NCBI GenBank assembly: GCA_002070505.1
Contig: MWDJ01000003.1
Coordinates: 14,103 to 78,102 of the forward strand
Origin: Bacteroidetes bacterium ADurb.Bin145
Lineage (GTDB): Bacteria > Bacteroidota > Bacteroidia > Bacteroidales > VadinHA17
DNA: 64,000 nucleotides
Reading direction: 5' to 3'
Each line of letters begins with the position of its first letter. Position 1 is the first letter of the stretch. Of the stretch, positions 8,280 to 57,760 are shown in pieces. Made by a program: the position numbers and the translations under genes. The notes under the pieces were generated by a model. That model saw only the letters and a list, made by a program, of their open reading frames with translations, did not search any database and was not told where the DNA came from.

Positions 8280-9320
8280 ATGCATAAAAAAAGCATTATT
8301 CTAATATCCCTTCTGATACTTACAGGTTTGTTTTATGGATCTGATGCTCAGGCTGAAGTCATTAAACGCTCATTTGGCAAGAAATTACAGCTAAAGAAAT
8401 TCTATTCCGTAACTGTAGATGATAACAACGTAAAATGGTTTCTGACTGAATCCGGGATAGTAAGCTTTGATGGTAAGAAGTGGATTCTCCAGAACAAGAA
8501 CACTCAGCTTCCTAAGTCAGATGTGAAGGACATTGAGTTTGTTAAGACATCATCCGGCCGTAAGATCTGGGTAGCCAGTCCGGAAGGTGCAGCCCTTGTA
8601 TCTATCCCTGTTGATAAGAAGAAGCCTGTAAATACATATAATACTGAAAATTCACCCTTATTAAGCAGCAATGTAATGTCTGTTGCTGCCGGTGCTAATT
8701 CATTAAGCTGGATAGGAACAGAAAAAGGGGTTTCTGCCATCAGGGGCGACAAATGGCTTGATTATGCTTATCTGGAACAATATCCCCAGGAGTTGTTCAA
8801 AGAACATCCAATTACCTCACTGGCCACAAGCACAGACGGAGATTCTCTTTATGTTGCAACAGTTGGTGTCGGTGTATTAAGAGTTTACAGAAACAAAGTT
8901 GACGGTATCTCCGGAGCATCTGACTATGCTCAGTGGGGGCCTATTTATATGCCATCCGACAATGTTTACAGCATATGCATAGCTCCAGATGGTACTCAAT
9001 GGTTCGGCACTGATATGGGAGTTGCCAGGCATACAGGATATAACACTCTCGCAAACTGGACCGTTTTCGACACAAAAAATGGCCTTATCAATAATTTCGT
9101 TCAGGCAATTGCTGTTGATAAAGATGGGAAAGTATGGTTTGGAACTAAAAACGGAATTTCTGTTTTTGACGGATCAAAATGGACCGCAATAACGGAAAAA
9201 GAAGGACTTACCAGCGGTAATGTGCTTTGCATAACAGTCGATAAAGATGGAGTAATCTGGATCGGAACTGATAATGGAGTTACCTGTTTCAATAAGGGAG
9301 TCTTCACTAATTTCAATTGA
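8280..9320 (+). CDS. secreted beta-propeller protein (two-component-regulator propeller type repeats)
   Basis: Signal peptide, then repeated W[FI]GT..G[VI]..[FH] blades (QWFGTDMGVARH, VWFGTKNGISVFDGSKW, IWIGTDNGVTCFNKG). Confidence 0.65.
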   Translation: MHKKSIILISLLILTGLFYGSDAQAEVIKRSFGKKLQLKKFYSVTVDDNNVKWFLTESGIVSFDGKKWILQNKNTQLPKSDVKDIEFVKTSSGRKIWVASPEGAALVSIPVDKKKPVNTYNTENSPLLSSNVMSVAAGANSLSWIGTEKGVSAIRGDKWLDYAYLEQYPQELFKEHPITSLATSTDGDSLYVATVGVGVLRVYRNKVDGISGASDYAQWGPIYMPSDNVYSICIAPDGTQWFGTDMGVARHTGYNTLANWTVFDTKNGLINNFVQAIAVDKDGKVWFGTKNGISVFDGSKWTAITEKEGLTSGNVLCITVDKDGVIWIGTDNGVTCFNKGVFTNFN

Positions 9321-9430
9321 AAGAAAAAATTCTATTTAACAGCTGAAATGAACAATTCCTGTGTGGCAATTGTTACAACACTGAACATAGAATAAACTCA
9401 TTATTTATTTAGTTAAATACCGCCAAAGGA

Positions 9431-25079: not shown

Positions 25080-25151
25080 GGTCCTATAGTTCAATGGATA
25101 GAACGGAGGTTTCCTAAACCTTAAATCCAGGTTCGATTCCTGGTGGGACTA
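25080..25151 (+). tRNA. tRNA-Arg (anticodon CCU); integration target of the island
   Basis: Hand-folded: acceptor GGTCCTA/TGGGACT (two G-U pairs), D arm GTTC/GAAC, anticodon stem GAGGT/ACCTT with loop TTCCTAA (CCU), T arm CCAGG-TTCGATT-CCTGG, discriminator A. CCA is not encoded. Confidence 0.9.
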
Positions 25152-25153
25152 CA
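25140..25153 (+). repeat. attL core (direct repeat within tRNA-Arg 3' end)
   Basis: CTGGTGGGACTACA, identical to 57823-57836. Confidence 0.75.
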
Positions 25154-25157
25154 GTTG

Positions 25158-25186
25158 AACCCTGTATACAGTTGATATACAGGGTT
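25158..25186 (+). terminator. island-borne hairpin directly after tRNA-Arg
   Basis: 11-bp perfect stem AACCCTGTATA / TATACAGGGTT with loop CAGTTGA, followed by TTCT. Confidence 0.5.
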
Positions 25187-25193
25187 TTCTGTT

Positions 25194-25242
25194 ATTAACA
25201 ACCAGAAATAGTATAAAATTAACAACCAAAATTAACAACCAG
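25194..25242 (+). repeat. three direct ATTAACAACCAR repeats (putative integrase arm-type sites, left end)
   Basis: ATTAACAACCAG at 25194, ATTAACAACCAA at 25218, ATTAACAACCAG at 25231. The same motif occurs three times at 57725-57760 in the same orientation. Confidence 0.6.
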
Positions 25243-25542
25243 AAAGATAAAAATATTATATTTTTCTCACCCCGACTGATTAAAACAAAATGCCATTGTA
25301 AATCAATTATATACAATGGCATTTTTCTTTGTAGTAGAAAAAGTTGTAGAATAATAATATATCGCTTTTATCTGATTCTCCCACTTCGTCTCCTGCCAAT
25401 GGCTTATTTTCCTTTCATTATCAAATCTTAAACACATACAATGGATTTCACCCATACTATAAGGGTTTTACCAAGTCTTTCTGAGACTTTCATTTAATTG
25501 AGTTTCAATGTAATTTTATGGGTAAACTTAAAACTTGCACTC

Positions 25543-30137: not shown

Positions 30138-31385
30138 ATGGAAATGCAAAAGAACATGCCGCAATTGCGTTTCCCTGATTTTGAAGGTGAGTGGGAGAAG
30201 AAAAAATTGGGTGAACTATCAATAATAAATCCTACCACTGTTAAACTACCAAACAAATTCATCTATATTGATTTGGAGAGTGTTACTAATGGGCAATTAA
30301 TTAAAGAAGAGGTTGTATTTAAAAACGAAGCACCAAGCCGAGCACAAAGAGTTTTGGAAATAGAAGATATTTTGTTTCAAATGGTACGACCTTACCAAAA
30401 AAACAACCTGTATTTTGACAAAAATGGAGATTATGTTGCTTCAACTGGATATGCTCAAATAAAAACCAAACAAAGTTCCCGATTTTTATATCAGTACCTT
30501 CATTTGCAACAATTTGTTGATGAGGTTATCGAAAGATGTACAGGCACAAGTTATCCTGCTATTAATTCGAAAGATTTAGCAAAAATTAGTGTTAGTTACC
30601 CCACTCTTCCCGAACAACAAAAAATCGCATCTTTTTTCACTGCCATTGACAAAAAGATAACGCAACTCAAGCAAAAGAAAACACTGCTGGAACACTACAA
30701 AAAAGGGGCGATGCAGAAAATATTTTCGCAGCAAGTCAGGTTCAAAGACGATAAAGGGTTCGAGTTTCCGAAGTGGGAGAAAAGTAAGTTCAATCAAATT
30801 TATTCCTTTAGAGTAACAAACTCTTTTTCAAGAGATGACCTGAACTATGAAGAAGGAGATGTAAAGAATCTTCACTATGGAGATATCCACACTAAGTTTA
30901 ATACACTTTTTGACATCACGAAAGAGGAAGTTCCATTTATCAAGCCTGACGTTTCGATAAAAAGAATAAGTTCTGACAATTACTGTAAGACCAGCGACAT
31001 TGTATTTGCTGATGCATCAGAAGACCTTGCTGATGTGGGTAAAAGCATTGAACTGGTTAATCTCAATGATGAGAAAGTTCTCGCTGGTTTGCATACAATT
31101 TTAGCAAGACCCGATGTAACAAAAATTGCTTCTGGATTTGGTGGTTATTTGATGAAGTCGCCTGAAGTTCGTCAACAAATTATGAAAATTGCACAAGGGT
31201 CAAAAATTACGAGCATATCAAGTACAAGGCTTTGCGATATTGAATTGAACACACCATGCCCTGATGAACAAACCAAAATCGCTAATTTCCTATCATCCAT
31301 TGATGTTAAAATAAACCAAACCCGAATGCAGATAGAAAAAGCAGAGGTTTGGAAGAAAGGGTTGATGCAACAAATGTTTGTATAA
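30138..31385 (+). CDS. hsdS: type I R-M specificity subunit S
   Basis: Two target-recognition domains are separated by the conserved central helix LPEQQKIASFFTAIDKKITQLKQKK and a C-terminal repeat (DEQTKIANFLSSIDVKINQ). The gene starts 3 bp after hsdM. Confidence 0.9.
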   Translation: MEMQKNMPQLRFPDFEGEWEKKKLGELSIINPTTVKLPNKFIYIDLESVTNGQLIKEEVVFKNEAPSRAQRVLEIEDILFQMVRPYQKNNLYFDKNGDYVASTGYAQIKTKQSSRFLYQYLHLQQFVDEVIERCTGTSYPAINSKDLAKISVSYPTLPEQQKIASFFTAIDKKITQLKQKKTLLEHYKKGAMQKIFSQQVRFKDDKGFEFPKWEKSKFNQIYSFRVTNSFSRDDLNYEEGDVKNLHYGDIHTKFNTLFDITKEEVPFIKPDVSIKRISSDNYCKTSDIVFADASEDLADVGKSIELVNLNDEKVLAGLHTILARPDVTKIASGFGGYLMKSPEVRQQIMKIAQGSKITSISSTRLCDIELNTPCPDEQTKIANFLSSIDVKINQTRMQIEKAEVWKKGLMQQMFV

Positions 31386-32523
31386 AATAATACTGAACGA
31401 TATGTATCGCATAAACAAAACAAACAATAATGTTACCAAACTTGAACAACGGTTGTTTAAAGAACTGCGAATCAAGGAAAGGGAGCATCTTCAGGAATGG
31501 ATTGCAAAGAATCCTGATATGTTGGGAGAAGAATTATTAATAATTCAAAAAGAATTCAGTGGTTTCAATGACACCAGTGAGCGACTTGACCTTTTAGCCA
31601 TAGACAGGGATGGTGGATTGGTCATAATTGAAAACAAACTTGATGATACAGGTAAAAATGTGGTTTGGCAAGCACTCAAGTATACCTCTTATTGTTCGAC
31701 ACTTACCACAGCACAGATTATCAAAATGTATCAGGAGTATATCGACAAATACGGAAATGGGGAAGATGCAAAAGAAAGTCTGCTTGAATTTCTGGAGTGG
31801 GAAGAAGAAGAACTCTTATTGAATCGAAACGACCAAAGGATTGTTTTTGTTTCAAATAATTTTCGCAAAGAGGTAACCTCTACTGTAATTTGGTTACTAA
31901 AGCACGACATTCAAATCCAATGTTTTAGGGCAATACCTTACAGTATGGGAGACGAGTTGTTTTTACAGATGGAGCAAATTATTCCATTGCCCGAAACAAA
32001 AGAATTTATGATTGATGCACAAGAAAAGGAAAAGGATGAAAAACATAAAAGCAAATCCGTTGAGGAATCCGAAGCACTGCTTATTAAATTTTGGGGACAA
32101 CTGAAACATCATTTAGTAGAGCAGAATATTGATTTTCTTGAAAGAGTTAGTGCGCATCCGAAACATAATATTGGTTTTTGGAAAGGGCATGGCAAGTTCG
32201 CCTTCTGTCTCGGCAGAAGTAATTTCAGAGTTGAACTTTATTTTTCTAATGACCCTGACAAAAAATTTATAGATGCAATGGCAATCCATAAGGATGAAAT
32301 AGAAAATTCATTTGTCGGGAAAATTGTATGGGAAAGATTGGAAAATAAAAGAGCATCACGTATCAAGCACGAAATGACACCCAGCGAATTAGAAAAGTTA
32401 AAGGGACGTTTTAATGATGAGACCTATTGGGAAGAACTAATTGCATGGTACAAATTAGCAATGGTGAAATTCTATGCAACCCTATATCCTGTTTGGGAAA
32501 AAGTTCAGAAGGAAATTTCATAA
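31378..32523 (+). CDS. PD-(D/E)xK-like nuclease domain protein with DUF4268-like C-terminus, embedded in the type I R-M operon
   Basis: ERLDLLAIDRDGGLVIIENKLD gives a D...(D/E)xK arrangement. The C-terminal half (FWGQLKHHL...HNIGFWKG...RVELYF) resembles DUF4268. Overlaps the hsdS end by 8 nt and stops 2 bp before hsdR. Confidence 0.55.
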   Translation: MYKIILNDMYRINKTNNNVTKLEQRLFKELRIKEREHLQEWIAKNPDMLGEELLIIQKEFSGFNDTSERLDLLAIDRDGGLVIIENKLDDTGKNVVWQALKYTSYCSTLTTAQIIKMYQEYIDKYGNGEDAKESLLEFLEWEEEELLLNRNDQRIVFVSNNFRKEVTSTVIWLLKHDIQIQCFRAIPYSMGDELFLQMEQIIPLPETKEFMIDAQEKEKDEKHKSKSVEESEALLIKFWGQLKHHLVEQNIDFLERVSAHPKHNIGFWKGHGKFAFCLGRSNFRVELYFSNDPDKKFIDAMAIHKDEIENSFVGKIVWERLENKRASRIKHEMTPSELEKLKGRFNDETYWEELIAWYKLAMVKFYATLYPVWEKVQKEIS

Positions 32524-35378: not shown

Positions 35379-35482
35379 TACAACTGCTATATCAGGTGTT
35401 ACATTATATATAACATGCTATTTGCTTGATTAATAACATCATAAAGAATATAGATTCTTGACCTAATTTGAACCAGAAATAC

Positions 35483-35712
35483 GACCTTAACCTGTTATTG
35501 ACTTGAAAGAATTAGTACATTTAAAACTTCTGTATGCAGTTGAATAACAGCACGCTACAACAAGTTACGGTCGCATTAACTGCCAAGTTAAGGTCAATAA
35601 AATGGTATTGCAATCATTGGAAGATAGGATTGGTGGAAGAAGAGAAAGATATGTGTAAGAATAATCAACATAAGGTCTCAGTTAATCAGCAGGTAAGGTC
35701 ATTAACATGGTA
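35483..35712. repeat. iteron-like TAAGGTC repeat cluster upstream of the polymerase-like gene
   Basis: TAAGGTCAATAAAATGGTA (35589-35607) and TAAGGTCATTAACATGGTA (35694-35712) match at 17 of 19 positions. A further TAAGGTCTCAGTTAATCAG lies at 35671, a degenerate TTACGGTCGCATTAAC at 35565 and an inverted GACCTTAA at 35483. Confidence 0.55.
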
Positions 35713-35728
35713 ACATCATATGGTATAA

Positions 35729-37738
35729 ATGGTAAGTAAGAAAGAAACCAACAGGAAGGCTTATGCAAAGGGGGAGTATCTACCAGAGAAACTGGCTCTG
35801 AGTTTGCAGAAATTATTTTTAAGTAACAGCAAGTATGAATACCGTAGCAAGAACAATTTCCTGCAATGTGTCTGGATTATATTTTATCATCAGGTTACCA
35901 AAGGGAATGGCTTATCACTTTACGTTCCACTTGGAAGAAATTATTGGAAGAAGATTTATGGTGGTAATTACCATGACAGTGTCCTTGCACCACTGTTGGA
36001 ATCCAATATAATTGAAAGCATTGATACTGGTTACCGCAATATTCCTGATAATACCAAACTTACTACATTTGGTAAACAGGATGGTTCTGTGGGAGTAAGA
36101 TATCGTATCACGCCAGACCTTCTGGGAGATGAGCAGGTCTTTATACCATACATTGCAGATGGGAAGGTGTTAACGGCATTGGAACGGATGCTATTTGATA
36201 ACAAGGAGTTTGTTATACCTGAAATTCCTGACCTGAATTTTCGCATCAGCATCGACACTGATAAAGCGTATAAGTGGGTTGAAAACAACGCAGAGCGCAT
36301 CTGTGCTGAGTTTCTGAAGAAGGATTATGTTAATATTCTTCCAGATGGTTTGTATCTTGAATGCCATGAATATCTGGATAGTGGGTCATATAATGTTAGA
36401 TACTATACTGTCAAGTGGGCAAAATTCATTGCTGAATCGAAAAAACAGGATTTCTTTTACTTCAACGATTCGTTTTATATTGCCAGTATTGATACATTTC
36501 TTCAACAGCGCATTCCTGCCCTGATTTATCATTATAAACACCAAATATCACAACTCGGAACGCTACCAATTGAAGAAAAACAAAGTCCTGTCACATTACG
36601 TATATACAGCCACCTGACAAACTTCCCCAGTAGGATTCTGCAATTCATTAACATCAATAACAAAACTGTACATCAATTGGATTTGCGGACATCCCAGTTT
36701 CTTATTTTTGCAAATTTGTTAAATGTTTATATCGTCAACGGTGGGGAGCATTTGCTTTCATTATTTGAAGAAGGGAAAAACAAAAAATATCTGAAACGCC
36801 TCATTAAAGTTCTTCAAGCACACCAGCACCAGTTACCATCGGTCGGAGTTGATATAAACGATATAAATTCAGGCGAAAACAGTTCAAGTGATGTGCTAAA
36901 GTTCATACGAGATGTTTTCTTTCGGGACTTCTATGATGTTGTTGCTCATGAACTCGGTATGAAGGAACGGTTGCTGGCAAAGCATGCATTGTTTAAATTA
37001 CTTTTCAAGAAAACTAATCGTCCTGATGCATTGCTGCACAAACTTTCACAACTCTATCCAATTGTAATTAGCATCATTGCTGAGTTTAAAAAGAAAGATG
37101 CGAAGAAGAAGGATGAAGAAAAAGAAGATGATAACAGTGAAAGCAATCTTTCAGTTTTTCTTCAATGCACTGAAGCAGAAATATTCGTGAACAATATTCT
37201 GAAAAGACTGAGGGATGAGGGCATTCCCTGTTTCACGAGGCACGACTCAATAGTTGTTGCAGACGGGCATCAGGACAAAGCAGAGGTAATTGCAAAAGAG
37301 GTTTTCAGAAAGTTTGGTTTTAAGTACAATCACAAAGCGGAAGATAAATTCTGGGAAGCCGTTGAATTTGAAGAATTAGAAGGAAGCACCTATATGCAAT
37401 GGGTGATTGATGAAAACTTGTTAAGTGATAACTATGATGTAGAAGGTGCATTTGATGAACCACATTACGAAATGATTGATATGGACGAATTTGAAAGTAA
37501 AATTTGTAAAAGACTGCTTGATATCGGAATTCATGAAGATTATTACGACCTCGTAAATGCTGTATTTCTGGAAGATATTTCCAATCTGCCGATGCTTTAT
37601 CGGGAAGAAAGAGATGCTTTGTATGATGAGGTGGTCAATTTGAATTCTGGATTTACTTTTTTGCAGGGAAAAACAAATGTGTTGTTAAGAAATCTGGTGG
37701 AAAGAATCAGCACCATGAATTTTAATGGTCGTGATTAA
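35729..37738 (+). CDS. orphan family-A (Pol I / T7-type) polymerase-like protein, highly diverged, no recognisable exonuclease domain
   Basis: Motif A-like QLD318LRTSQFLIFANL (compare DYSQIELRxxAHL). Motif B/O-helix R414LLAK418HALF422KLLF426 (compare RRxAKxxNFGxxYG, identical R-K-F-Y/F spacing). Motif 6 LQ479CTEAEIF (compare MQGTAADII). Motif C TRH505D506SIVV (compare QVHDELVF). Confidence 0.6.
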   Translation: MVSKKETNRKAYAKGEYLPEKLALSLQKLFLSNSKYEYRSKNNFLQCVWIIFYHQVTKGNGLSLYVPLGRNYWKKIYGGNYHDSVLAPLLESNIIESIDTGYRNIPDNTKLTTFGKQDGSVGVRYRITPDLLGDEQVFIPYIADGKVLTALERMLFDNKEFVIPEIPDLNFRISIDTDKAYKWVENNAERICAEFLKKDYVNILPDGLYLECHEYLDSGSYNVRYYTVKWAKFIAESKKQDFFYFNDSFYIASIDTFLQQRIPALIYHYKHQISQLGTLPIEEKQSPVTLRIYSHLTNFPSRILQFININNKTVHQLDLRTSQFLIFANLLNVYIVNGGEHLLSLFEEGKNKKYLKRLIKVLQAHQHQLPSVGVDINDINSGENSSSDVLKFIRDVFFRDFYDVVAHELGMKERLLAKHALFKLLFKKTNRPDALLHKLSQLYPIVISIIAEFKKKDAKKKDEEKEDDNSESNLSVFLQCTEAEIFVNNILKRLRDEGIPCFTRHDSIVVADGHQDKAEVIAKEVFRKFGFKYNHKAEDKFWEAVEFEELEGSTYMQWVIDENLLSDNYDVEGAFDEPHYEMIDMDEFESKICKRLLDIGIHEDYYDLVNAVFLEDISNLPMLYREERDALYDEVVNLNSGFTFLQGKTNVLLRNLVERISTMNFNGRD

Positions 37739-37892: not shown

Positions 37893-38135
37893 TCAGTCAG
37901 TTATAGAAAGAATTTCACTCGCAGGGACGTTATAAAAATCAGATAGTAATAACAATTGTTTGATGCCGTAATTATGGCATTTATTTTCAATACGAAGCAA
38001 TGTTTGCTTCCCAATTTTGGTATATCGGCACACGTCATCTCTGGTCATGTTTTCATTTAACCTTAATTCTCTCAGGTACAAGCCAACCGCTTCAAGATTT
38101 TTGGTATGCTTTTTCGATATTTCTTTTCTGGGCAT
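37893..38135 (-). CDS. XRE-family helix-turn-helix transcriptional regulator (about 80 aa)
   Basis: MPRKEISKKHTKNLEAVGLYLRELRLNENMTRDDVCRYTKIGKQTLLRIENK... The internal ATG at 38135 is preferred, because the long track ORF to 38405 has an implausible Cys/Ser-rich N-terminus. Confidence 0.65.
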   Translation of the reverse strand: MPRKEISKKHTKNLEAVGLYLRELRLNENMTRDDVCRYTKIGKQTLLRIENKCHNYGIKQLLLLSDFYNVPASEILSITD

Positions 38136-38373
38136 TGATGATGATTTTACAATAAATACAGAAGTTCCAAAAAAGTAACTTCGTGCTGCACTATAACGCC
38201 TTAAAACGACTCCTTTTGTTCCTGATAATGTCATTATATGGTATGTTATTAGCGACCTGTAATGGCTTAAAACAGCCTTTTTAACGGTAAATCTTGCATT
38301 TTCCCTTAGTATGCTGTACACACATGCAGGTAAGCGAGGATAATTTTTACAATTTTTAACGGGAAAACAGTTT

Positions 38374-38670
38374 TTACTTCTGGAATTTGAAGAATCGCTT
38401 TCCATCTGAATCCAATGCCGAAAGTACGTTTAGGATGGTCTGCACATTAAAATAGACGTTTGATTCTTTTATAAGCAAATAACTATACCGAGAAATTTTT
38501 GCTTTCTTGCAAAGTTCGGATACACTCATGCCTTTTTTTATCCTGAGTCCCTCTAATTTTACGCCAACTGCTTCCAGAAATGCTTTGTGTTCAGGTTTAA
38601 TCTTCTTTGGTGGCACATATTTTTTCTCTGACTGGACTGGTTGCAGGGTCAAGTTACTCTTTGCTTTCAT
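38374..38670 (-). CDS. XRE-family helix-turn-helix transcriptional regulator
   Basis: KAFLEAVGVKLEGLRIKKGMSVSELCKKAKISRYSYLLIKES parallels the downstream regulator (shared ..LEAVG..L..LR...). Confidence 0.65.
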   Translation of the reverse strand: MKAKSNLTLQPVQSEKKYVPPKKIKPEHKAFLEAVGVKLEGLRIKKGMSVSELCKKAKISRYSYLLIKESNVYFNVQTILNVLSALDSDGKRFFKFQK

Positions 38671-38754
38671 TGTAAAAATTTGACATAAAGGTAGTAATTG
38701 TACATTAAAATGGACGTGACTTGTTGTTGAAATTAAATATTATTCTTTACATTT

Positions 38755-38770
38755 GTCCATTATAATGGAC
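38755..38770. promoter_or_regulatory. perfect 16-bp palindromic operator candidate between divergent HTH and recombinase transcription units
   Basis: GTCCATTATAATGGAC read directly, with an extra AATGGAC half-site at 38709-38715. It lies 5 bp upstream of the ATG at 38776. Confidence 0.5.
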
Positions 38771-38775
38771 GCTTT

Positions 38776-38964
38776 ATGAATAATAAGCATAAAATAATGC
38801 ACCAAATTGTCTTTAACGAGAGAGATTATAATTCAGGCAATATGATTATTATGTTCATGGAAGAAAATAAGATGACAGAAGTTGTATCAATACCATTTTT
38901 ACGCACACAAGTTTTTTGTGAAAGACTTGAATCATATCGTATCGATGAGTTTAGTTTAAATTAA
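38776..38964 (+). CDS. small hypothetical protein
   Basis: 62-aa ORF directly upstream of the recombinase gene. No motif recognised, and coding status is uncertain. Confidence 0.3.
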   Translation: MNNKHKIMHQIVFNERDYNSGNMIIMFMEENKMTEVVSIPFLRTQVFCERLESYRIDEFSLN

Positions 38965-38975
38965 ATGTTAATTAT

Positions 38976-39551
38976 ATGAGAAAGGTAGCACTATATTGTC
39001 GTGTAAGTTTAAGCAATGGTAGCCAGACTACCGAAAATCAAAAAATCAGATTGATTGAATATGCTGAAAAATATGGATATCAATACGATATCTTCGAGGA
39101 AACCGAAAGTACTCGGAAGACCAGACCTGTTAAACAAGGGTTGCTGGCACGACTAAGAAACAAAGAATATGATGCTGTAATTATTTATAAATTAGACCGT
39201 TGGGCAAGGTCTTCAACTGAACTAATTCTTGACACAAAAGAACTTCTGGACAAGGGTGTTGGCTTTATTAGCATCAGCGATAATATTGATTTTACTACAG
39301 CAGCAGGAAAATTGCATTTCCAAATTTTGTCAGCATTTGCTGAATTTGAACGGGAATTAATAAGGGAACGCACGCTTGAAGGTCTACGCAGGGCAAAATT
39401 GCAGGGTAAACAGGCTGGAAGACCTAAAGGAAGTAAGGACACCAAAAAAAGAAGAAAATCTGGATATATTCTTAGAGAGGCAAGAAAGAAACAGAATCTG
39501 GACGCATTGAATGGAATAAATCATTCCATTGAAAGTTATATTGGAACTTAA
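38976..39551 (+). CDS. small serine recombinase (resolvase/invertase catalytic domain) with atypical basic C-terminal tail
   Basis: VALYCRVSLSNGSQTTENQ (catalytic Ser context), VIIYKLDRWARS, AEFERELIRERT..GL..AK..G...GRPKG. After GRPKG there is a Lys/Arg-rich tail instead of an obvious Hin-type HTH. Confidence 0.85.
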   Translation: MRKVALYCRVSLSNGSQTTENQKIRLIEYAEKYGYQYDIFEETESTRKTRPVKQGLLARLRNKEYDAVIIYKLDRWARSSTELILDTKELLDKGVGFISISDNIDFTTAAGKLHFQILSAFAEFERELIRERTLEGLRRAKLQGKQAGRPKGSKDTKKRRKSGYILREARKKQNLDALNGINHSIESYIGT

Positions 39552-39703: not shown

Positions 39704-40531
39704 ATGTTGATAAAAGACCATAGAGCAATATATATACACTGCGATGGGTCTATGATGCCAAATACAAAATCAAGCGGTGGAATCGGTTACATTATTAAAT
39801 TCCCTGACGAATTTGAATTGGAAGATATTAGCGACATAGAGGGGACATTTGAGGATGCTAATATAGAAAGATTAGAAATTTTGGCATTAATAAAAGGGAT
39901 GCAAGGTTTTATAGATTGGATTAGTAAAAGCCATTTCAATTTAACCACAGTATCTAAAATTGTTTTAATTACTGACCGATTTGATTTGCAGGATAATGAG
40001 AGAACAAATCCATATAAAATAAGTGAATGGCGCAAACATGCTGGGAAGAATTTCGAAGGTAAAGAAATTCTGAATTGGGATTTGCTTAATGAACTGGATA
40101 AAACAAGAAACAAACTCCGTAAATTAACATGGAAGACCGTACGAATTGAATATATAAGAAGAAAATTCAATAAGGAAGCAGACAAACTATCAAAAAAAGC
40201 CAGAGAAATTGGAATTCCGAATAAAATGATTGCAATAATCGGGCATAAAATCGGAAGAAGAAAATTTGATGGACAGGAAGTAGATTATAGAAAAATTAAT
40301 CCCCACGAAACAATAAATATTCATGTATTTAGAAAAAGACCCATAAAGGAGCAATGGGAAGTTAATGCTGAAATATTATCAGGAGATTCTATTGGAAGAC
40401 GAATTAAGATAATTACTGACTATACCTTACAAGAAAAACTAAATCGAGGAAATTTATTTATTGTAAAAATTAAGGCAGTTTACACATACCATGTTGAAAT
40501 CTTCCGTACAATAAAGAAAGTGAAAAAGTGA
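39704..40531 (+). CDS. RNase H (type 1, RVT_3-like) domain protein with unknown C-terminal extension of about 100 aa
   Basis: DEDD-type arrangement: IYIHCD14GS, NIE56RLEILAL, VLITD91R, FNKEAD160KLSK (the N..AD.L signature of RNase HI). Confidence 0.65.
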   Translation: MLIKDHRAIYIHCDGSMMPNTKSSGGIGYIIKFPDEFELEDISDIEGTFEDANIERLEILALIKGMQGFIDWISKSHFNLTTVSKIVLITDRFDLQDNERTNPYKISEWRKHAGKNFEGKEILNWDLLNELDKTRNKLRKLTWKTVRIEYIRRKFNKEADKLSKKAREIGIPNKMIAIIGHKIGRRKFDGQEVDYRKINPHETINIHVFRKRPIKEQWEVNAEILSGDSIGRRIKIITDYTLQEKLNRGNLFIVKIKAVYTYHVEIFRTIKKVKK

Positions 40532-41112
40532 ACCATTTGAAGCCCAGCAATAAAGAATTAGAATTTTTAACATTAGCCTACAATAGGTTTTATGATTTGT
40601 ATGATGAAGTTATGGAAGATAGTTTCTGGATTAAAAGTGAATGGGATAGGTTTTCAAAAATAAAACAGGCATTTGATATTTATAATGAAGTATTAGACTA
40701 CGAGCCTCTAAAACATGCAATCGAGAATTTAAAAACAGCACGACCTCCGATGGAATCTGAGATTGGAAGTGAATTATTCAAATTTGTAAGAAACGTTCTT
40801 TCTCATTTCCCATACTTTCAATCATGGAATTCCGTATGGATAAAAAAATCCATCATAAATTGGAATAAAGAAGGACTTACAATTGATAAGTTCCTGAAAA
40901 AATATGAGGGTCATGAACCAGTGAAATTTCGATTCTGGGAAGGGCAAAAGAAAAGGATGACATATTTGAATATTTGTTTCCCAGAACAATATATAATTGA
41001 CACGAATATTTGTCTTAAAGATATTATCTCAGAAAAAGAGGGTGTTATGTTTTCTTTCATTCTAATGAGAAAGATAATGGATACTCAGGTGTTTGAACTT
41101 AAACAAAAATAA
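40528..41112 (+). CDS. all-helical protein with RX4H motif (HEPN-like candidate), translationally coupled to the RNase H-like gene
   Basis: The GTG start overlaps the upstream TGA (GTGA). FVR88NVLSH93FPYF fits the HEPN R-x4-H motif (nt 40789-40806). The assignment rests on this motif only. Confidence 0.4.
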   Translation: MNHLKPSNKELEFLTLAYNRFYDLYDEVMEDSFWIKSEWDRFSKIKQAFDIYNEVLDYEPLKHAIENLKTARPPMESEIGSELFKFVRNVLSHFPYFQSWNSVWIKKSIINWNKEGLTIDKFLKKYEGHEPVKFRFWEGQKKRMTYLNICFPEQYIIDTNICLKDIISEKEGVMFSFILMRKIMDTQVFELKQK

Positions 41113-46601: not shown

Positions 46602-48050
46602 CTACTTGCAATACTCTTTAATTAATTCATCAGCATTAGTAAATCCCAAATTGCTCGCCTTACGCCAATCCAAACATGCCCCAACTATATCTTCAAGATA
46701 AAGTTTTGCAATCCCTCTATTAAAGTAAGCAACTGAAAGGTTCGTATTAATTTCAATTGCCTTGGTATAATCCAGAATTGCACCTTTTAAATCATCAATT
46801 TTATATTTAATTACTCCTCTGTTAAATAGTGCTTTTTCATCGTCAGGATTAATCGCTAAAGACTTGGTATAATCTAAAATTGCACCATTATAATCATTAA
46901 GTTTTTCTTTTGCTACCCCTCTATTATAATAGGAAAATGCGAAGTTTGGATTTATTTCTAATGCTTTAGTATAATCCAGAATTGCACCTTTAAAATCAGA
47001 AAGTTTATCTTTCGCAAGTCCTCTATTATAATATGATTGTCCATTTTCTGCATTAATTTCTATCGATTTTGAAAAATCTTCCAAGGCTGATTTATATTCC
47101 CCAATTTCATATTTTACAGTTCCTCTTTCAATATACACTAATTCAAGTTTTGGATTAATCTCTATTGTTTTTGTATAATCAAGAATTGCTCCTTTATAAT
47201 CTGCAAGCCTGTATTTTGCAAGTCCTCTATAATAAAAGGCTTCTTCACTGTTTGAATTATTTTCTATTACCTTATCAAAATCAATAATTGCCCCTTTGAA
47301 ATCATTATATCCATATTTAGACCTCCCTCTATTATAATATGCCACTGCAAGGTTAGGATTTATCTCTATCGCTTTATCAAAATCTGCAATCGAACCAATT
47401 CTATCGTTAAGTTTATCTTTAGCATTTCCTCTGTTAATATATGCTTGTGGAAGCAATGGATTAATCTCGATTGCATTGTTATAATCCAATAATGCACCTT
47501 TATAATCTTCAAGTTTATATTTCGCAAGTCCCCTATTGAAATAGGCTATCGCATCCTTCTTATCAATTTCAATTGCCGTGTCATAGTCTGCAATCGCTTT
47601 TTGATAGTTCCCAAGCCTATCTTGAGCGGTTCCTCTATTTACAAATGCTACTCCAAGTCTGGGATTTACCTTTACTGCAATATTATAATCAACCATTGCA
47701 CCTTCGGTATCATCAAGTTCATCTTTTGCAATTCCTCTGTTTGTATATGCTTCTGCAAAATTCGGATTTATTTCTATTGCTTGGTCAAAGTCTCGAATTG
47801 CTCCATAAAAATCATTAAGTTTTCCTTTGGAAAGTCCTCTATTATAATATGCTGCTGAATATGATGGATTAATTCCAATTGCTTTTGAATATTCTACTAT
47901 TGCTCCTTTATGGTCGCCAAGGTCATCCTTAGCAATCCCTCTATCAAAAAACTCAACTGCAGTCTGCCCTTGGCAAATAAAACCCAGAAATAGGCAGAGA
48001 AATATAATTAATAATGATTTCATTTTACCCATGCTAAAATTATTACCCAT
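46602..48050 (-). CDS. tetratricopeptide (TPR) repeat protein, secreted
   Basis: Signal peptide, then about 13 consecutive 34-aa repeats of the form A..YNRG.AK..L.DY.GAI.DY..AIEINP. Confidence 0.9.
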   Translation of the reverse strand: MGNNFSMGKMKSLLIIFLCLFLGFICQGQTAVEFFDRGIAKDDLGDHKGAIVEYSKAIGINPSYSAAYYNRGLSKGKLNDFYGAIRDFDQAIEINPNFAEAYTNRGIAKDELDDTEGAMVDYNIAVKVNPRLGVAFVNRGTAQDRLGNYQKAIADYDTAIEIDKKDAIAYFNRGLAKYKLEDYKGALLDYNNAIEINPLLPQAYINRGNAKDKLNDRIGSIADFDKAIEINPNLAVAYYNRGRSKYGYNDFKGAIIDFDKVIENNSNSEEAFYYRGLAKYRLADYKGAILDYTKTIEINPKLELVYIERGTVKYEIGEYKSALEDFSKSIEINAENGQSYYNRGLAKDKLSDFKGAILDYTKALEINPNFAFSYYNRGVAKEKLNDYNGAILDYTKSLAINPDDEKALFNRGVIKYKIDDLKGAILDYTKAIEINTNLSVAYFNRGIAKLYLEDIVGACLDWRKASNLGFTNADELIKEYCK

Positions 48051-48266: not shown

Positions 48267-48299
48267 TTTTTTATTCCACACTTGTGTTGCTTTAAAAAC

Positions 48300-48390
48300 A
48301 ATGGTTGAACGACCTATTTGAGGCAGTACTCACCTTATTACTTCCTTTAGCACGAGGAAAATGCAGCGAGACAACGAGTACTGCCTCTTT
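48300..48390 (+). ncRNA. unclassified structured element, copy A (strand assignment tentative)
   Basis: Conserved 5' block AATGGYTGAACGACCTATTT. Outer stem GAGGCAGTACTC (48320-48331) / GAGTACTGCCTC (48376-48387). Inner stem TTCCT/AGGAA around AGCACG. Conserved AATGCAGYGAGACAA. T-rich 3' tail. Confidence 0.5.
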
Positions 48391-51079: not shown

Positions 51080-51880
51080 TCAATCATTCCATTTGGCGGC
51101 TACTTCTTCAAAAAGTGCATGTGAACTTTCAATAAATTCGTCCATAGTTTTGGCTTCATAAGTTGCAATTGCAGGAAACATTAATTTCCCTTCATTTTCA
51201 GGCGAATTTGCTAAATCATCCAGATTTAGGACATCATGTGCCAACTCATGGTAAATAAGATAATACCGCAGAGGCTTTTTAAACGCATTCCATGTTGAGG
51301 GGTTAATATATATTTCAATCTTATCGTCATCATTTATGCCGCAAGAAATGCCGTGAATATGAGTAGCATCGGTTATGTGGTCGAATTTTGCGAATTTTAT
51401 TATACTGGTAGTTGGCTTTTTCGGGAATATTCCATAAACAGCAATATCTCGATAAAATTTCTCAACATAAAAATTGAAATCCACATCTGCTTCATAAGCA
51501 CTTGATTTAATCTCTTGATAAAAATTGTATTGATTTTGTCGTTTGATAAAAAAGAAGACTATACACAGAGCAAGTATTGAAACAAATGCAATTAAAGCAC
51601 CTCGTTTCAGTTTTTTTCGATTTTTCGAGGGAGATAACTGAATATTCATCTCCTTGGTAATTTCCTCTTGCTTTTCAACTATTTCTTGATTGCTTTTTAG
51701 TTGGGGTGGCAGTGAGTTAGTGATGGCTTTCAACTCATCTAAGTCAGACAATTTTGTCCAATTCTCTAATCCAAAGTACCATACCTTTGTTTCCCTTGTA
51801 ATTTTCTGTTGTCTCAGTTCTTCAAATGTAAAGGGACCGTGCTTATCAACTCCATCAGTATAGAAGTACTTTTTCATCAA
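51080..51880 (-). CDS. GYF_2 (DUF4339) domain / TM / HExxH metallopeptidase-like protein
   Basis: KKYFYTDGVDKHGPFTFEELRQQKITRETKVWYFGLENWTKL (GYF_2), TM segment ALIAFVSILALCIVFFFI, and YHELAHDV (HExxH). Confidence 0.55.
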   Translation of the reverse strand: MMKKYFYTDGVDKHGPFTFEELRQQKITRETKVWYFGLENWTKLSDLDELKAITNSLPPQLKSNQEIVEKQEEITKEMNIQLSPSKNRKKLKRGALIAFVSILALCIVFFFIKRQNQYNFYQEIKSSAYEADVDFNFYVEKFYRDIAVYGIFPKKPTTSIIKFAKFDHITDATHIHGISCGINDDDKIEIYINPSTWNAFKKPLRYYLIYHELAHDVLNLDDLANSPENEGKLMFPAIATYEAKTMDEFIESSHALFEEVAAKWND

Positions 51881-52758
51881 TAGTCATATTGTTCTGGGAA
51901 AATTACTGAATAGGTAATTAAATCGTAAAGTTTTTCTAAAGCAGTAAACTCATTATTATCTAAACCACCACACTGAAGATATACAATTTTATCTTCGAAA
52001 AAAACCATCCAACATTTTTGTTTTATGCTCATTTTAATTCCTAACCGCTCCATTTCTCCTCTCATTGTGAATTCAAGAGATGGATACTTGTCAACACTCA
52101 CGACTCTATAATTAAGTAATTGTGGGTTGGTCAGCAAAGAACTCGCTTCAGATAAAAACTCATTGACATATTCATCATCAGATAGAATCTCACGAATCTC
52201 ATTTCTTGAAAAAAACATGATGTTATCTTTCACCATAATCATATAATTATTGTTCTTAAACAGGAACTTTTGCACAATATTTGGTCTGTCCCCTTCTTCA
52301 ATCTGCCATCCGATAGGTGGTCTGAGTTTTAAATTGACCCCTTTTGATTTTGGATGTCCATCTATGCTTATGTATTCTCCTAAATTGAAATTTAAATCGA
52401 CAAGTTCGTATGAATTAATACTTATTTTTTCACGAAGGCGATTCTCATAAAAATATTGGTATTCAACGTTTATGTCATTATTAAAATACATTTCAGAATA
52501 TCCTGATTTTTTAATATTTTCTATTAAATCGATTTTCATATTATTTGGAGCATACCAATCCTCGTTTACAAGATATTGGTAAACTAAAGTTCTGCCCAAA
52601 GCGTAACAACCCTTTACATTAATTCCATTTCCAAAATCCATGCCTTGCAATTCATTATTAATTTTTTGTGCCAATACTTTTATGTCATTATCTGATAATG
52701 ATTGTGGGTAACTAATCAAATTGAAGTAGAATAGTATGACGGGCAGGATTAATTTCAT
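51877..52758 (-). CDS. secreted hypothetical protein (paralogous domain to 50096..50722)
   Basis: Signal peptide and the shared P..W.....G.RP.I motif. A 4-bp ATGA overlap couples it to the downstream gene. Confidence 0.4.
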   Translation of the reverse strand: MKLILPVILFYFNLISYPQSLSDNDIKVLAQKINNELQGMDFGNGINVKGCYALGRTLVYQYLVNEDWYAPNNMKIDLIENIKKSGYSEMYFNNDINVEYQYFYENRLREKISINSYELVDLNFNLGEYISIDGHPKSKGVNLKLRPPIGWQIEEGDRPNIVQKFLFKNNNYMIMVKDNIMFFSRNEIREILSDDEYVNEFLSEASSLLTNPQLLNYRVVSVDKYPSLEFTMRGEMERLGIKMSIKQKCWMVFFEDKIVYLQCGGLDNNEFTALEKLYDLITYSVIFPEQYDY

Positions 52759-52776
52759 GAAGTATTTATTTTAACA

Positions 52777-53373
52777 TTAAATCCAAGGACTTCTTCCGTA
52801 TTTATTGCTGATACCTTCTTCTCCTTTCCCGAAAATCATTAAAATTGGGAAAAATGGTACTATCTGCCACCAACCATTAAACCCCATATCGTGACAGCGT
52901 TTAGCACCTTGCGCAAAAAAGAACCAATATAAGGGTATATAAGCAAGGAACAGCCATGATAAATCATAATTTTCTTCTATTAACACATTGATGATTAAAA
53001 TAAAGAATAATAGGATAATAAAACTTACTATATATTCCAATCGCCTTATTCGACCCTTGAATGAAAACGGATTAGATAACATACCTTGCCTTTTAAAACT
53101 TTCAGAACCCGTATTGTCATCGGTGACATTTACGTCACTAATTTTGTAATCCGATTGGGCATTTTCGCTTTTCATATCCAATTTTTCGGAAATAATAGGT
53201 GGTGGAATTAATTTAAGAATCTCTTCGAATTCTCCTATTTCTTTTGCTTGCTTCCAATCCTCAAGACCCTCAAACCATATTAAGGTATCTTTAGTTATGT
53301 TTTCATTTTTTAGTTCTTCGAAAGAAAATGGACCGAATTTGTCTTTGCCGTCCGAATAAAAATATTTTTTCAT
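52777..53373 (-). CDS. GYF_2 (DUF4339) plus DUF805 membrane protein
   Basis: KKYFYSDGKDKFGPFSFEELKNENITKDTLIWFEGLEDWKQAKEI (GYF_2). FSFKGRIRRLEYIVSF ... AKRCHDMGFNGWW ... NKYGRSP (DUF805 blocks). Confidence 0.65.
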   Translation of the reverse strand: MKKYFYSDGKDKFGPFSFEELKNENITKDTLIWFEGLEDWKQAKEIGEFEEILKLIPPPIISEKLDMKSENAQSDYKISDVNVTDDNTGSESFKRQGMLSNPFSFKGRIRRLEYIVSFIILLFFILIINVLIEENYDLSWLFLAYIPLYWFFFAQGAKRCHDMGFNGWWQIVPFFPILMIFGKGEEGISNKYGRSPWI

Positions 53374-53553
53374 GGTGTTTAAGTTTTACATATAACCAAT
53401 TAGTTCATAAACGGACAAATTATTTTCCGTACTCCAGAAAAATATTATCAAAAATATTTTTAAATATGATTTTTACTCATCTAAAGTTATACCTAATTGC
53501 TGGTAGAACCAAATTATTTTGTTTTTCACCTAATATTGTACTACTCTTAAAGG

Positions 53554-53640
53554 AATGGCTGAACGACCTATTTGAGGCAGTCCTTCATACCCACAGCAAG
53601 AGGGTTAATGCAGTGAGACAATTCGATAGGACTGCCTCTT
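53554..53640 (+). ncRNA. unclassified structured element, copy B (strand assignment tentative)
   Basis: Same 5' block (AATGGCTGAACGACCTATTT). Outer stem GAGGCAGTCCT (53574-53584) / AGGACTGCCTC (53628-53638). Inner stem ACCC/GGGT around AGCAAGA. Conserved AATGCAGTGAGACAA. Confidence 0.5.
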
Positions 53641-56041: not shown

Positions 56042-57676
56042 TCACTTATTAAAGTCTTTAATTAGTTTTTGAATCACTTGTTTCTTTTGTTCAAGATTGA
56101 GTCTATTTTTATAATACTTTAGAATCTTTACATCAGTATGTCCAGTGAATTGAATTATTAATTCGTCTGCTAATCCTAAGTTCGCTAAATAATTTATAAA
56201 TGTTTTTCTGGCTGTAAAAGGAGCAAATACCTCATGTAATTTATATTCTATAACATTCTTCTTGGAATTAATTCTTGTGTTCGGTTCTGAAATTATCCGA
56301 TTCCATTTAAAATGTTTTGCAACTTCTTTCAATTGTTCCCGATATGTTGATATATTAAGAAATTCAGGCAACCCTTCAGGATATCTTTTTAAAACATCTT
56401 TAACTTCTATCAAGATTGGATTTTTCGAAATCTTTTTTGATTTACTACGGTAAAAACCTACGTAGGTATTTTCAAACCTTAAATTACCACTATATAACTC
56501 ACTTGGACGTAATCCACCAGCAAACATCTGGATAATATACATGTCAGTTGCAAGTTGCATTTTGGGGTCTTTGAATGAAGCAGTAAGAAGTTGTTCGATT
56601 TCTTCATATTCCAAGGTAAATTCAATTTTTGTGTAACTATCTCTGTTTAAAGACCTGCTAAGAAAATCTGAAGCATTTATATGATTGGTATTTACTGCTG
56701 TTTGAGGTATCAGTCCTACTGTTTGAAGAATATTAATATAATGTTTCAGCATCTTCACAATTTTCTGGAATGAAGCAATCTTAAAGTATTCTCTGGAAGC
56801 ATTTGTAAATGATTTCTTCTTTTCGAAAATATTAAATGGGGAATACCCTTTGAAATGAATCAGTGGATATCCTTTCTTAACTTTAAATTTCAAAAATTCC
56901 TCAACCCATTTTAAATTGAATTTATTAACTGAATTGCTTACTAAATCTCCATTCAAAATATAATCGGCAAGGTGAAAAATCAGGGATTGGTATGAATCTG
57001 CAATAAATGGGTCATTATTCTTAGGATTTTTTGACCAACAATAACCGAATACTTCAATAAGGTTGTTTTTATCAAATTTACCCTGAGCATACCTTTCATC
57101 CAGAGTCAATGACTGAGTAAGTTTTTTATCCTTTTCAATCTGAATTTCAATACTAATAGAGTCTTTTATATTATCTATTTCTTCATCTGTAATTTCTCCT
57201 TGTTCACTTATCTTTTCTTCAATTGCTTTTTCAATGCGTTTAATTTCGTCACTCTGAAAAGAATTTTCTTCTTCTGAAAAACTTATTGTATTCAAAAACT
57301 TGTTCCACGATGTAACTTCTGAATCTAATGCCTCTTCCTTTTGAATATCATACAACTTATTATTAATATCATCTACCGTAAAATCTACTCCTTCAGAAAT
57401 TTTGTCTACCAGTATCTTCTTGATTTTTGTTTCAATATTAAATAACTTCAATCTCTCGGTAGTGGGGGGTTCTGATTTCAATTTTTCATATTGCGAATCT
57501 GTTACCAAATAAATATTATTGAACTCATCTCTAATTGTTACTTCGAACCGTTTCAATTCATTGAATTTTTTGCCTGACATATACCCAATCTTTGCTAAAA
57601 CCTTCAATTGGCTACTCCCATCCTGTCTTTTATAACTAACACGAAATAAATTAGTCTTTATGATAGTGTTTTTCAT
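56042..57676 (-). CDS. int: tyrosine-type site-specific integrase with long N-terminal arm-binding/linker region
   Basis: C-terminal catalytic domain: GGLRPSELY (Arg I), FTARKTFINYLANLG (Arg II region), TGHTDVKILKYY (His...Tyr nucleophile). It is the last gene before attR. Confidence 0.88.
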   Translation of the reverse strand: MKNTIIKTNLFRVSYKRQDGSSQLKVLAKIGYMSGKKFNELKRFEVTIRDEFNNIYLVTDSQYEKLKSEPPTTERLKLFNIETKIKKILVDKISEGVDFTVDDINNKLYDIQKEEALDSEVTSWNKFLNTISFSEEENSFQSDEIKRIEKAIEEKISEQGEITDEEIDNIKDSISIEIQIEKDKKLTQSLTLDERYAQGKFDKNNLIEVFGYCWSKNPKNNDPFIADSYQSLIFHLADYILNGDLVSNSVNKFNLKWVEEFLKFKVKKGYPLIHFKGYSPFNIFEKKKSFTNASREYFKIASFQKIVKMLKHYINILQTVGLIPQTAVNTNHINASDFLSRSLNRDSYTKIEFTLEYEEIEQLLTASFKDPKMQLATDMYIIQMFAGGLRPSELYSGNLRFENTYVGFYRSKSKKISKNPILIEVKDVLKRYPEGLPEFLNISTYREQLKEVAKHFKWNRIISEPNTRINSKKNVIEYKLHEVFAPFTARKTFINYLANLGLADELIIQFTGHTDVKILKYYKNRLNLEQKKQVIQKLIKDFNK

Positions 57677-57724: not shown

Positions 57725-57760
57725 ATTAACAACCAGAATTAACAACTAATTAACAACCAG
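57725..57760 (+). repeat. three direct ATTAACAACYAR repeats (putative arm-type sites, right end)
   Basis: ATTAACAACCAG at 57725, ATTAACAACTAA at 57738, ATTAACAACCAG at 57749. They lie between the integrase start and attR. Confidence 0.6.

Follow-up and report, generated by a model that had tools for sequence, protein, structure and literature searches.

Polymerases of the TV-Pol family were defined computationally by Iyer, Abhiman and Aravind in 2008 (PMC2579912). They occur in transposons and viruses of several phyla, Bacteroidetes among them, and were predicted to be the primase-polymerases of replicative elements. One subset has an extra N-terminal domain and is encoded in hot spots with many restriction-modification operons, next to a gamma-delta resolvase, an integrase or a transposase, and the elements that carry TV-Pols were proposed to move by means of resolvases (PMC2579912). 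The sole characterised member of the family, the atypical CCPol of SCCmec, primes DNA synthesis de novo together with its partner MP (PMC7581432). The putative origin of SCCmec is composed of AAGTG iterons that are bound by the helicase Cch2, and the preferred start of priming maps to one of these repeats (PMC7581432, Bebel et al. 2020; PMC10061031, Rice 2023). The large subset with the N-terminal domain has so far been without a known cis-acting site, and our full-text literature search found no description of a cis-acting repeat array for TV-Pols.

The locus described here lies in a 64-kb stretch of Bacteroidota DNA, which we call the window. A sequence-only reading of this stretch had reported iteron-like TAAGGTC repeats immediately upstream of a polymerase-like gene. 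It had suggested that the surrounding island may replicate after excision in the manner of a phage satellite or PICI, with operator sites for the gene as the alternative. The array of direct and inverted repeats proved to be genuine and conserved, being found in 47 of 48 unique loci. It is the best candidate to date for an origin or control site of this polymerase family.

Layout of the array

The hsdR gene ends with its stop codon (35378), a 669-residue ORF starts with its ATG (35729), and the non-coding gap that separates them comprises 350 bp (35379 to 35728). Inspection of the sequence and a repeat finder agreed with the earlier description of this gap, both for its length and for the coordinates of the repeats, namely two 19-mers with two differences (TAAGGTCAATAAAATGGTA at 35589 and TAAGGTCATTAACATGGTA at 35694), a third copy of TAAGGTC at 35671, TTACGGTCGCATTAAC at 35565 and an inverted GACCTTAA at 35483. 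These five sites are real, but they are not the full set. A sixth half-site, TTGACCTAATTT, which was absent from that list, is found on the minus strand at 35458–35469. It pairs with GACCTTAA at a core distance of 23 bp, and the inverted copy is therefore a complete bipartite unit in its own right. The true repeat unit is bipartite throughout and consists of an 'a' box of the GTTAAGGTCGCATTAA type and a 'b' box of the AGTTAAGGTCAATAAYATGGTA type, whose GGTC cores are exactly 23 bp apart. Three such units, i.e. six half-sites with GGTC cores, occupy the gap: two inverted cores (35460 and 35483) come first, then a spacer of 72 nt and finally four direct cores (35569, 35592, 35674 and 35697). The features of the array and the gene that it precedes are as follows.

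35458–35491, minus strand: inverted bipartite unit, identified from the sequence and from the inverted repeats returned by the repeat finder
35460–35463, minus strand: GACC core of the b' half-site TTGACCTAATTT, within the inverted unit
35483–35486, minus strand: GACC core of the a' half-site CGACCTTAAC, 23 bp from the b' core
35492–35563, no strand: moderately AT-rich spacer between the inverted unit and the first direct unit
35564–35607, plus strand: direct bipartite unit 1, PWM score 30.8 bits
35564–35580, plus strand: box a1, GTTACGGTCGCATTAAC, GGTC core at 35569
35586–35607, plus strand: box b1, AGTTAAGGTCAATAAAATGGTA, GGTC core at 35592, 23 bp from the a1 core
35669–35712, plus strand: direct bipartite unit 2, proximal to the gene, PWM score 24.7 bits
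35669–35687, plus strand: box a2, CATAAGGTCTCAGTTAATC, GGTC core at 35674
35691–35712, plus strand: box b2, AGGTAAGGTCATTAACATGGTA, GGTC core at 35697, 23 bp from the a2 core
35729–37738, plus strand: 669-residue polymerase of predicted family-A fold, TV-Pol-like (AF2 model, Foldseek, invariant motifs)

The repeat finder returned the two direct units as a 47-nt repeat, with copies at 35561–35607 and 35666–35712 that are 105 nt apart. Four of the six TAAGGTC heptamers of the 64-kb window fall within 230 bp, and the Poisson probability of such a cluster anywhere in the window is approximately 5e-6. A degenerate version of the 19-mer has two matches in the window, both of them in the array; two or more matches were obtained in 2 of 100 shuffled sequences. 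The core of b2 starts 32 nt upstream of the ATG, and the box itself ends 16 nt upstream. The spacer at 35492–35563 is a candidate for a segment that might be unwound or bent. A simple scan of the region for sigma-70-type promoters and terminators gave nothing above the shuffled expectation, and no terminator was detected after hsdR.

The 669-residue protein

The AF2 model of the 669-residue protein has a pLDDT of 81. Foldseek matched it to T7 DNA polymerase, to the Pol I enzymes of Aquifex and Taq and to the apicoplast polymerase, followed by the mitochondrial and T7 RNA polymerases. Stronger matches were found with phage proteins of 400–430 residues annotated as 'putative DNA polymerase I' (E 1.5e-12). 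The columns that are invariant among 56 homologues are D318-x4-Q323, R414-x3-K418-x3-F422-x3-F426 and R504-H-D506-S, which we take to correspond to motif A, the O-helix and motif C, respectively, of the Klenow and T7 enzymes. Judged on the model, the protein is a polymerase of the family-A fold with conserved catalytic and O-helix motifs. The description of the adjoining gene as polymerase-like was thus well founded, and the enzyme is of a kind for which priming of the replication of integrative elements was predicted and, for CCPol-MP of SCCmec, demonstrated (PMC2579912, PMC7581432). F426 presumably stands where T7 RNA polymerase has the tyrosine that selects the ribose. Together with a glutamine at the steric-gate position, this residue might favour the use of dNTPs.

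No sequence match to the protein was found in Pfam, PADLOC, NCBIfam or the PDB. More than 149 close homologues are present in Bacteroidota metagenomes, and its superfamily comprises about 1300 clusters at 50 % identity. The N-terminal 280 residues are modelled confidently (pLDDT 86) as a mixed alpha/beta domain, for which a structure search returned no significant match to any solved fold, DNA-binding and exonuclease domains included. Domain searches with the acidic C-terminal region of ~90 residues likewise gave no recognisable fold or family. As both regions are without matches, we do not name a DNA-binding domain.

The protein fits the description of the TV-Pols in its fold, its motifs and its genetic neighbourhood, and apparently also in having no recognisable exonuclease domain. 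Like them, it has minimal palm and fingers resembling those of PolA and T7 RNA polymerase, two catalytic Asp residues (D318 and D506) and an RxxxK motif (R414-x3-K418). Its N-terminal 280 residues may correspond to the extra globular domain of one TV-Pol subset. In both close and distant relatives the neighbouring genes include a gamma-delta-type resolvase and restriction-modification or other defence genes, as is the case for TV-Pols. Among the distant relatives, these neighbours are a resolvase with hsdM/S and GmrSD, an Eco57I-type enzyme or an integrase, and one relative is encoded inside a phage-like contig. There are differences as well, since the N-terminal domain is modelled as mixed alpha/beta here, whereas it was predicted to be all-helical in PMC2579912, and this clade has an additional acidic C-terminal domain. 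With our family profile, a Ma-LMM01 ORF beside IS605-type transposases (L083:22746-24266) was the best match among ~200 ORFs, with a non-significant E value of 0.013. Comparison with the Ma-LMM01 TV-Pol by hhalign gave E values of 0.18 and 0.042 at a probability of ~1 %, which are not significant either. For this reason we use the term TV-Pol-like and do not count the protein as a proven member of the family.

The cassette and its island

The polymerase gene is part of a cassette whose order is conserved: a type I restriction-modification operon, the array, the polymerase gene, two opposite-strand genes for XRE-type HTH proteins, an ORF of 60–77 residues and a gene for a serine recombinase of 190–210 residues. 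Downstream of the polymerase gene, the window harbours the following features.

37893–38405 and 38374–38670, minus strand: two XRE-type HTH genes, convergent with the polymerase gene (Pfam HTH_3 and HTH_26)
38700–38770, no strand: divergent control region with two palindromes, GTACATTAAAATGGAC at 38700–38715 and GTCCATTATAATGGAC at 38755–38770
38776–38964, plus strand: small conserved ORF of 62 residues, identified from the synteny of the cassette
38976–39551, plus strand: serine recombinase of the resolvase/invertase type, 191 residues (Pfam Resolvase, 2.8e-36)

The upstream type I restriction-modification operon ends in hsdR or in a YgjP-like gene (~28 of 44 loci). The resolvase gene is present in 26 loci and the HTH gene cluster c0 in 33. 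The serine recombinase also has below-cutoff NCBIfam matches to CcrB, XisF and Mpi. The palindromes GTACATTAAAATGGAC and GTCCATTATAATGGAC bear no relation to the GGTC boxes and probably serve the HTH repressors as operators. Approximately a dozen loci similarly harbour lineage-specific palindromes of 16–18 bp, mostly paired, between the HTH genes and the recombinase operon. Five loci of three lineages (L055/56/59, L060 and L066) have kept the polymerase gene and the boxes and have no HTH or resolvase homologue within ~5 kb. The polymerase is thus the only constant partner of the array.

In the window, the cassette is located inside a 32.5-kb island of low GC content that adjoins a tRNA-Arg gene (25080–25152). 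The island is bounded by ATTAACAACCAGAA repeats at 25194, 25231 and 57725, and a tyrosine integrase is encoded at 56042–57676. The repeats of the array had been linked to this integrase island as a whole; they belong instead to the small conserved cassette beside the type I restriction-modification genes. We recognised no helicase, SSB or other replication gene in the cassette. A small circular plasmid was considered and rejected: homologues are often found on contigs of 2–5 kb, yet none of these has terminal overlaps, and there are no circular contigs among them. Searches of PLSDB, phage genomes and IMG/VR, including 2.9 million viral contigs, gave no plasmid or phage matches. With no relative among these viral contigs, and no packaging or phage-interference genes seen, the proposal of a satellite or PICI lifestyle is unsupported.

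Conservation of the array

We collected 66 homologous loci from genomes and metagenomes, which provided 48 non-identical upstream regions. A b box precedes the polymerase homologue in 47 of the latter, over a range of protein identities of 37–100 %, and its core GTCAATAA is almost invariant. The sequence-only reading had named homologous islands devoid of repeats at this position as evidence against it; the homologous loci do carry them. When whole loci (5–14 kb) were scanned on both strands, the b box was confined to the upstream side of the polymerase gene and to its strand, with two weaker exceptions. It was positioned at about -37 to -58 and/or farther upstream. Matches to a loose half-site pattern occurred in the 400 nt upstream of the gene at 11 times the density seen in the remainder of the loci.

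In an alignment of 21 diverse loci, four GACC/GGTC cores show little or no variation, in contrast to the drifting sequence between them, and the orientation of the array is the same throughout. The distances between the cores are constrained. Exactly 23 nt separate 59 of 90 pairs of neighbouring same-strand cores in the 48 loci, and the distance from the last inverted to the first direct core is 85–86 nt in 18 of 31 loci. In 15 of 21 loci the spacer measures 70–71 nt, and its AT content averages 72 %, compared with 64 % in the loci as a whole. The last core is found 31–35 nt upstream of the ATG in 25 of 48 loci. Such fixed spacing combined with free sequence between the cores is a signature of protein-binding sites.

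The universal part of the array is a symmetric core composed of an inverted unit, the spacer of ~71 nt and a direct unit. This core can be placed anywhere from ~-60 to -230 relative to the ATG; a second direct unit beside the ATG, as in the window, is seen where it sits farther upstream. The sequence of the half-sites varies between lineages (GTTAAGGTC, GTTCATGTC/GTTCCTGTC, GATACGGTC or GTTCAGGTC), each locus having a single variant common to all its copies. The left edge of the conserved non-coding block directly follows the stop codon of the hsdR or YgjP-like gene. No difference within the 350 bp was seen between ten independent contigs from the same species. DnaA boxes with at most one mismatch are present in only 12 of 55 loci and are not a consistent feature. 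No comparable upstream array was found in the distant family members that we searched (L077, L081, L084, L085 and L087; 436–682 residues). The array is thus specific to this clade and is not a rule of the family. Taken together at the level of the DNA, the invariant cores, free spacers, helical phasing, concerted change of the half-sites and linkage to a single gene form the pattern of sites that would co-evolve with a protein encoded in the locus.

Possible functions of the array

We propose that the array is the binding platform of its own polymerase and a priming or origin site, with the gene-proximal unit also serving as an autoregulatory operator; we give this reading a probability of about 0.45. 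Polymerase protomers would bind half-sites of the GTTAAGGTC type through a non-catalytic domain, for which the basic N-terminal domain is the better candidate, as the C-terminal domain is acidic. Occupation would be pairwise, with 23 bp between the two half-sites and both on roughly the same face of the helix, and the inverted and direct pairs would bracket the somewhat AT-rich spacer of fixed length (~71 bp). At the resulting nucleoprotein complex, DNA synthesis would be primed for the cassette or island that carries the resolvase, so that the array would act as its origin. Since the gene-proximal unit ends ~16 nt before the start codon, its occupation would also let the polymerase hold down its own expression, much as the Rep genes of plasmids are controlled through iterons and inverted repeats. 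We infer each of these three parts, i.e. the polymerase as the binder, the start of priming or replication at the array and autoregulation.

The arrangement could also serve transcription only. The array would then be an operator or activator site, possibly including part of a promoter, bound by a regulator other than the polymerase, be it an HTH protein, a host factor or an unrecognised protein of the cassette, and it would have no role in DNA synthesis. Every b box points in the direction of the gene, about half of the loci have their last core 31–35 nt before the start codon, and the conserved 3' half of the b box (AATAAYATGG) is placed like a -7-type promoter element with a short leader. 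There is no intrinsic terminator between hsdR and the polymerase gene, so that control of read-through would be useful, and the distant relatives do without the array. That the proximal unit keeps a fixed distance from the ATG is no less compatible with a role in transcription only than with the reading proposed above. Nevertheless, a symmetric core at ~-60 to -230 is atypical of an operator, and dimers of XRE-type HTH proteins normally bind palindromes, which are found separately, beside the HTH genes. Furthermore, the boxes are kept where the HTH genes are missing, and inspection of their sequences revealed no evident TAnnTTTG motif, the promoter consensus of Bacteroidetes. A purely transcriptional array thus appears possible, if rather unlikely. 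A different kind of promoter would be needed if the polymerase were a single-subunit RNA polymerase that transcribes its own gene, with the b boxes as T7-type promoters or double-stranded priming signals. The T7 and mitochondrial RNA polymerases do belong to the same fold family, and motif C of the 669-residue protein, HDS, is also that of T7 RNA polymerase. In addition, the b box is directional and ~22 bp long, and in its information profile a recognition part at the upstream side is combined with an AT-rich stretch and a conserved G, which resembles the layout of phage promoters. However, the box is present solely before the enzyme's own gene (two weaker matches elsewhere in the 48 loci), which leaves no regulon; the candidate of a regulon promoter was rejected on the same ground, the box being absent elsewhere in the loci. 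The fingers of the model have no insertion resembling a specificity loop, F426 apparently replaces the ribonucleotide-selecting tyrosine of T7 RNA polymerase, and the nearest structural matches are DNA polymerases, all of which makes self-transcription of this kind highly improbable.

A gamma-delta-type resolvase is a conserved member of the cassette, and the array might be its recombination or accessory site, of the res, six or att type, used to resolve, excise or insert the cassette beside restriction-modification operons. Resolvase sites such as those of Tn3, gamma-delta and Sin res are composed of several 12-bp half-sites, direct and inverted, with accessory subsites, and the multiple direct and inverted half-sites of the array resemble them. 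The conserved block begins directly after the hsdR or YgjP-like stop codon, and movement by resolvases was proposed for TV-Pol elements (PMC2579912). Yet the array is 3.3 kb away from the recombinase gene, which res sites normally abut, and five loci keep the boxes with no recombinase gene within ~5 kb. The other end of the cassette has no second copy of the array in either orientation, the directly repeated a and b boxes at 23 bp include no central crossover dyad, and no rearranged variants were detected among the ten same-species contigs. We consider a recombination site improbable on these grounds. Transposon ends were rejected as a separate candidate: no inverted copy of the array exists downstream, with isolated matches only in L051 and L056, and the left non-coding block shares no sequence with the region after the recombinase gene. 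The inverted repeats also flank a segment of ~70 nt, as might be expected of an invertible promoter, and a 59-residue ORF (35534–35713) is called in some assemblies. Such an inverton, a small ORF, a structured RNA leader and a chance repeat are effectively refuted, given a layout that is consistent over 48 loci and an orientation that is identical in the ten same-species contigs, with no inverted variants. The ORF is specific to the window and not conserved. RNAalifold yielded 5 pairs, mostly invariant, at -2.7 kcal/mol, with one compensatory change and an unfavourable covariation term, and no Rfam match was obtained. Conservation and the statistics of the repeats rule out chance.

Based on the predictions for TV-Pols and on the priming activity of CCPol with MP, the best-supported reading is that the polymerase binds the array, assembles on its symmetric core and primes there. 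Co-variation of the half-sites with the locus cannot by itself single out the polymerase as the binder, because the genes of the cassette are inherited together; only the five loci devoid of HTH and resolvase genes do so. The operator role for the polymerase gene, which the sequence-only reading had offered as its alternative, is probably part of the truth. A bolder version, which we regard as unlikely but worth stating, is a new kind of origin. The N-terminal domain of a TV-Pol would bind double-stranded GGTC boxes, and the enzyme would start DNA synthesis de novo with no helicase or SSB encoded by the element. It would thereby act as a promoter-dependent DNA primase akin to T7 RNA polymerase and copy a resolvase cassette that spreads restriction-modification and other defence genes through Bacteroidota.

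For the TV-Pol subset with an N-terminal domain, the array represents a testable DNA target of ~250 bp with six half-sites and natural specificity variants, which allows the direct design of assays for binding, priming and replication. Should the polymerase act at this site, this would account for the maintenance or copying of a widespread Bacteroidota cassette with links to type I restriction-modification and other defence genes, and the few known origin-recognition proteins would be joined by an initiator with a polymerase fold. Even as an operator only, the array would provide this uncharacterised family of polymerases with a well-defined regulatory module.

Comparison with known systems

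Compared with the res sites of Tn3/gamma-delta and Sin, the array similarly has several half-sites of 9–12 bp, direct and inverted, within ~250 bp, and a resolvase is encoded in the same cassette. Unlike those sites, it is located away from the resolvase gene and is kept without it, and it has neither a central-crossover dyad nor a partner site.

The CCPol-MP-Cch2 replication module of SCCmec resembles our cassette in several respects: an A-family polymerase is encoded on an integrative island, this island is mobilised by a serine recombinase, short iterons form a putative origin, and restriction-modification cargo is frequent. In SCCmec, however, the AAGTG iterons are bound by the helicase and follow the helicase gene, whereas no MP-like, SSB or helicase gene is found here, and the recombinase is of the small resolvase type rather than a large Ccr.

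The third comparison is with iteron origins that adjoin an autoregulated initiator gene, such as those of the theta plasmids pSC101, F, P1 and RK2, the ori/crr of satellite P4, to which the alpha primase-helicase binds, and the SaPI ori, the target of Rep. In common with these, the array has short directional repeats phased by about two helical turns (23 bp), with direct and inverted copies beside a replication-type gene, a repeat sequence that co-varies with the locus and one unit that overlaps the control region of the gene. The differences are that consistent DnaA boxes and a strong AT-rich unwinding element are missing here, that the element is chromosomal and its replication hypothetical, and that the half-sites number only six, with an inverted and a direct pair placed symmetrically about a spacer fixed at 71 bp. 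Moreover, the neighbouring gene codes for a polymerase of the family-A fold rather than for a winged-helix Rep or a primase-helicase. Phased repeats beside the replication gene of an element are thus of a kind already known. What is new is the combination of a polymerase-fold protein as the presumptive partner, a bipartite, symmetric layout phased at 23 bp and the conservation of this layout across a widespread, defence-linked cassette of Bacteroidota.

Borders and repeats of the island

The polymerase cassette lies in an island of 32.5 kb with a GC content of about 30-37 %, against about 40 % in the flanks. The following features are found at its ends.

25080-25258: tRNA-Arg(CCT) gene and, after it, two ATTAACAACCAGAA repeats (25194, 25231)
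56042-57676, minus strand: tyrosine integrase, 544 aa
57725-57764: third ATTAACAACCAGAA repeat, at 57725, just outside the tyrosine integrase gene

The ATTAACAACCAGAA repeats are probably the att sites of this low-GC island. Other repeats in the window include a 49-nt direct repeat inside the island (48282-48330 and 53536-53584, 5.25 kb apart, 82 % identity), and a gene for a TPR protein of 482 residues (46602-48050, minus strand) made of at least 10 copies of a 102-nt (34-aa) repeat.

Defence-type genes near the polymerase and its distant relatives

Two candidate defence features were identified in the window.

31378-32523, plus strand: 381-aa gene between hsdS and hsdR (PADLOC PDC-S11, DUF4268, NucS-like domain)
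39704-41112, plus strand: RNase H-domain protein (275 aa) and overlapping 194-aa ORF, directly 3' of the serine recombinase gene

The 381-aa gene product matches the PADLOC defence candidate PDC-S11 (1.7e-132), and the other contigs of the same species likewise carry this gene, which appears to have an accessory role in defence within the type I operon. The 275-aa RNase H protein and the 194-aa ORF may represent defence cargo. The latter faintly matches a PADLOC model of the CARF/HEPN type, with E 0.053, and the pair shows no conservation across the other loci.

Defence-gene islands are persistently tied to the polymerase superfamily. The distant relatives, of 436-682 residues, retain the D..SQF, RxxxKxxxF and (T/S)RHDS motifs, and their genes are found in the following environments.

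L077: tyrosine integrase, GYF_2 and HigB genes
L085/L086: GmrSD and Eco57I-type enzyme genes
L087: resolvase, hsdM/S and GmrSD genes
L081: phage-like contig with RecA and helicase genes

GYF_2 proteins are also encoded in the island of the window (51080-53373).

Non-coding elements around the cassette

A second conserved non-coding block, with a consensus of about AAGTAATACTTTATRTAA, directly precedes the array of GGTC-core half-sites in all loci (e.g. 35379-35420 in the window). It begins 5-25 nt past the stop codon of the upstream gene, be it hsdR or a 238-aa YgjP-like gene. In locus L020 the YgjP-like gene is absent, but a leftover of its 3' end is retained. The AAGTAATACTTTATRTAA-type block may be the left boundary of the cassette, or else an additional binding site.

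The most divergent homologue (37 % identity) is that of locus L026, which has four inverted GACCTTAAC boxes at 5800-5870, spaced by 23, 15 and 23 nt, together with just one b box in direct orientation, the b box being one of the half-site types of the array. Three tandem paralogous ORFs of 103 residues are located between its HTH genes (8468-9433).

In the window, the divergent stretch that separates the HTH genes from the recombinase operon contains two palindromes.

38700-38715: palindrome GTCCATTATAATGGAC
38755-38770: palindrome GTACATTAAAATGGAC

Lineage-specific palindromes of 16-18 bp, mostly paired, occupy this same position in the window and in nine other loci (L012, L018, L019, L021, L024, L027, L028, L036 and L041), with TGCCCATTTTATTGGGCA as the counterpart in L028, L036 and L041. 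These palindromes look like a repressor-operator switch co-evolving with the HTH pair.
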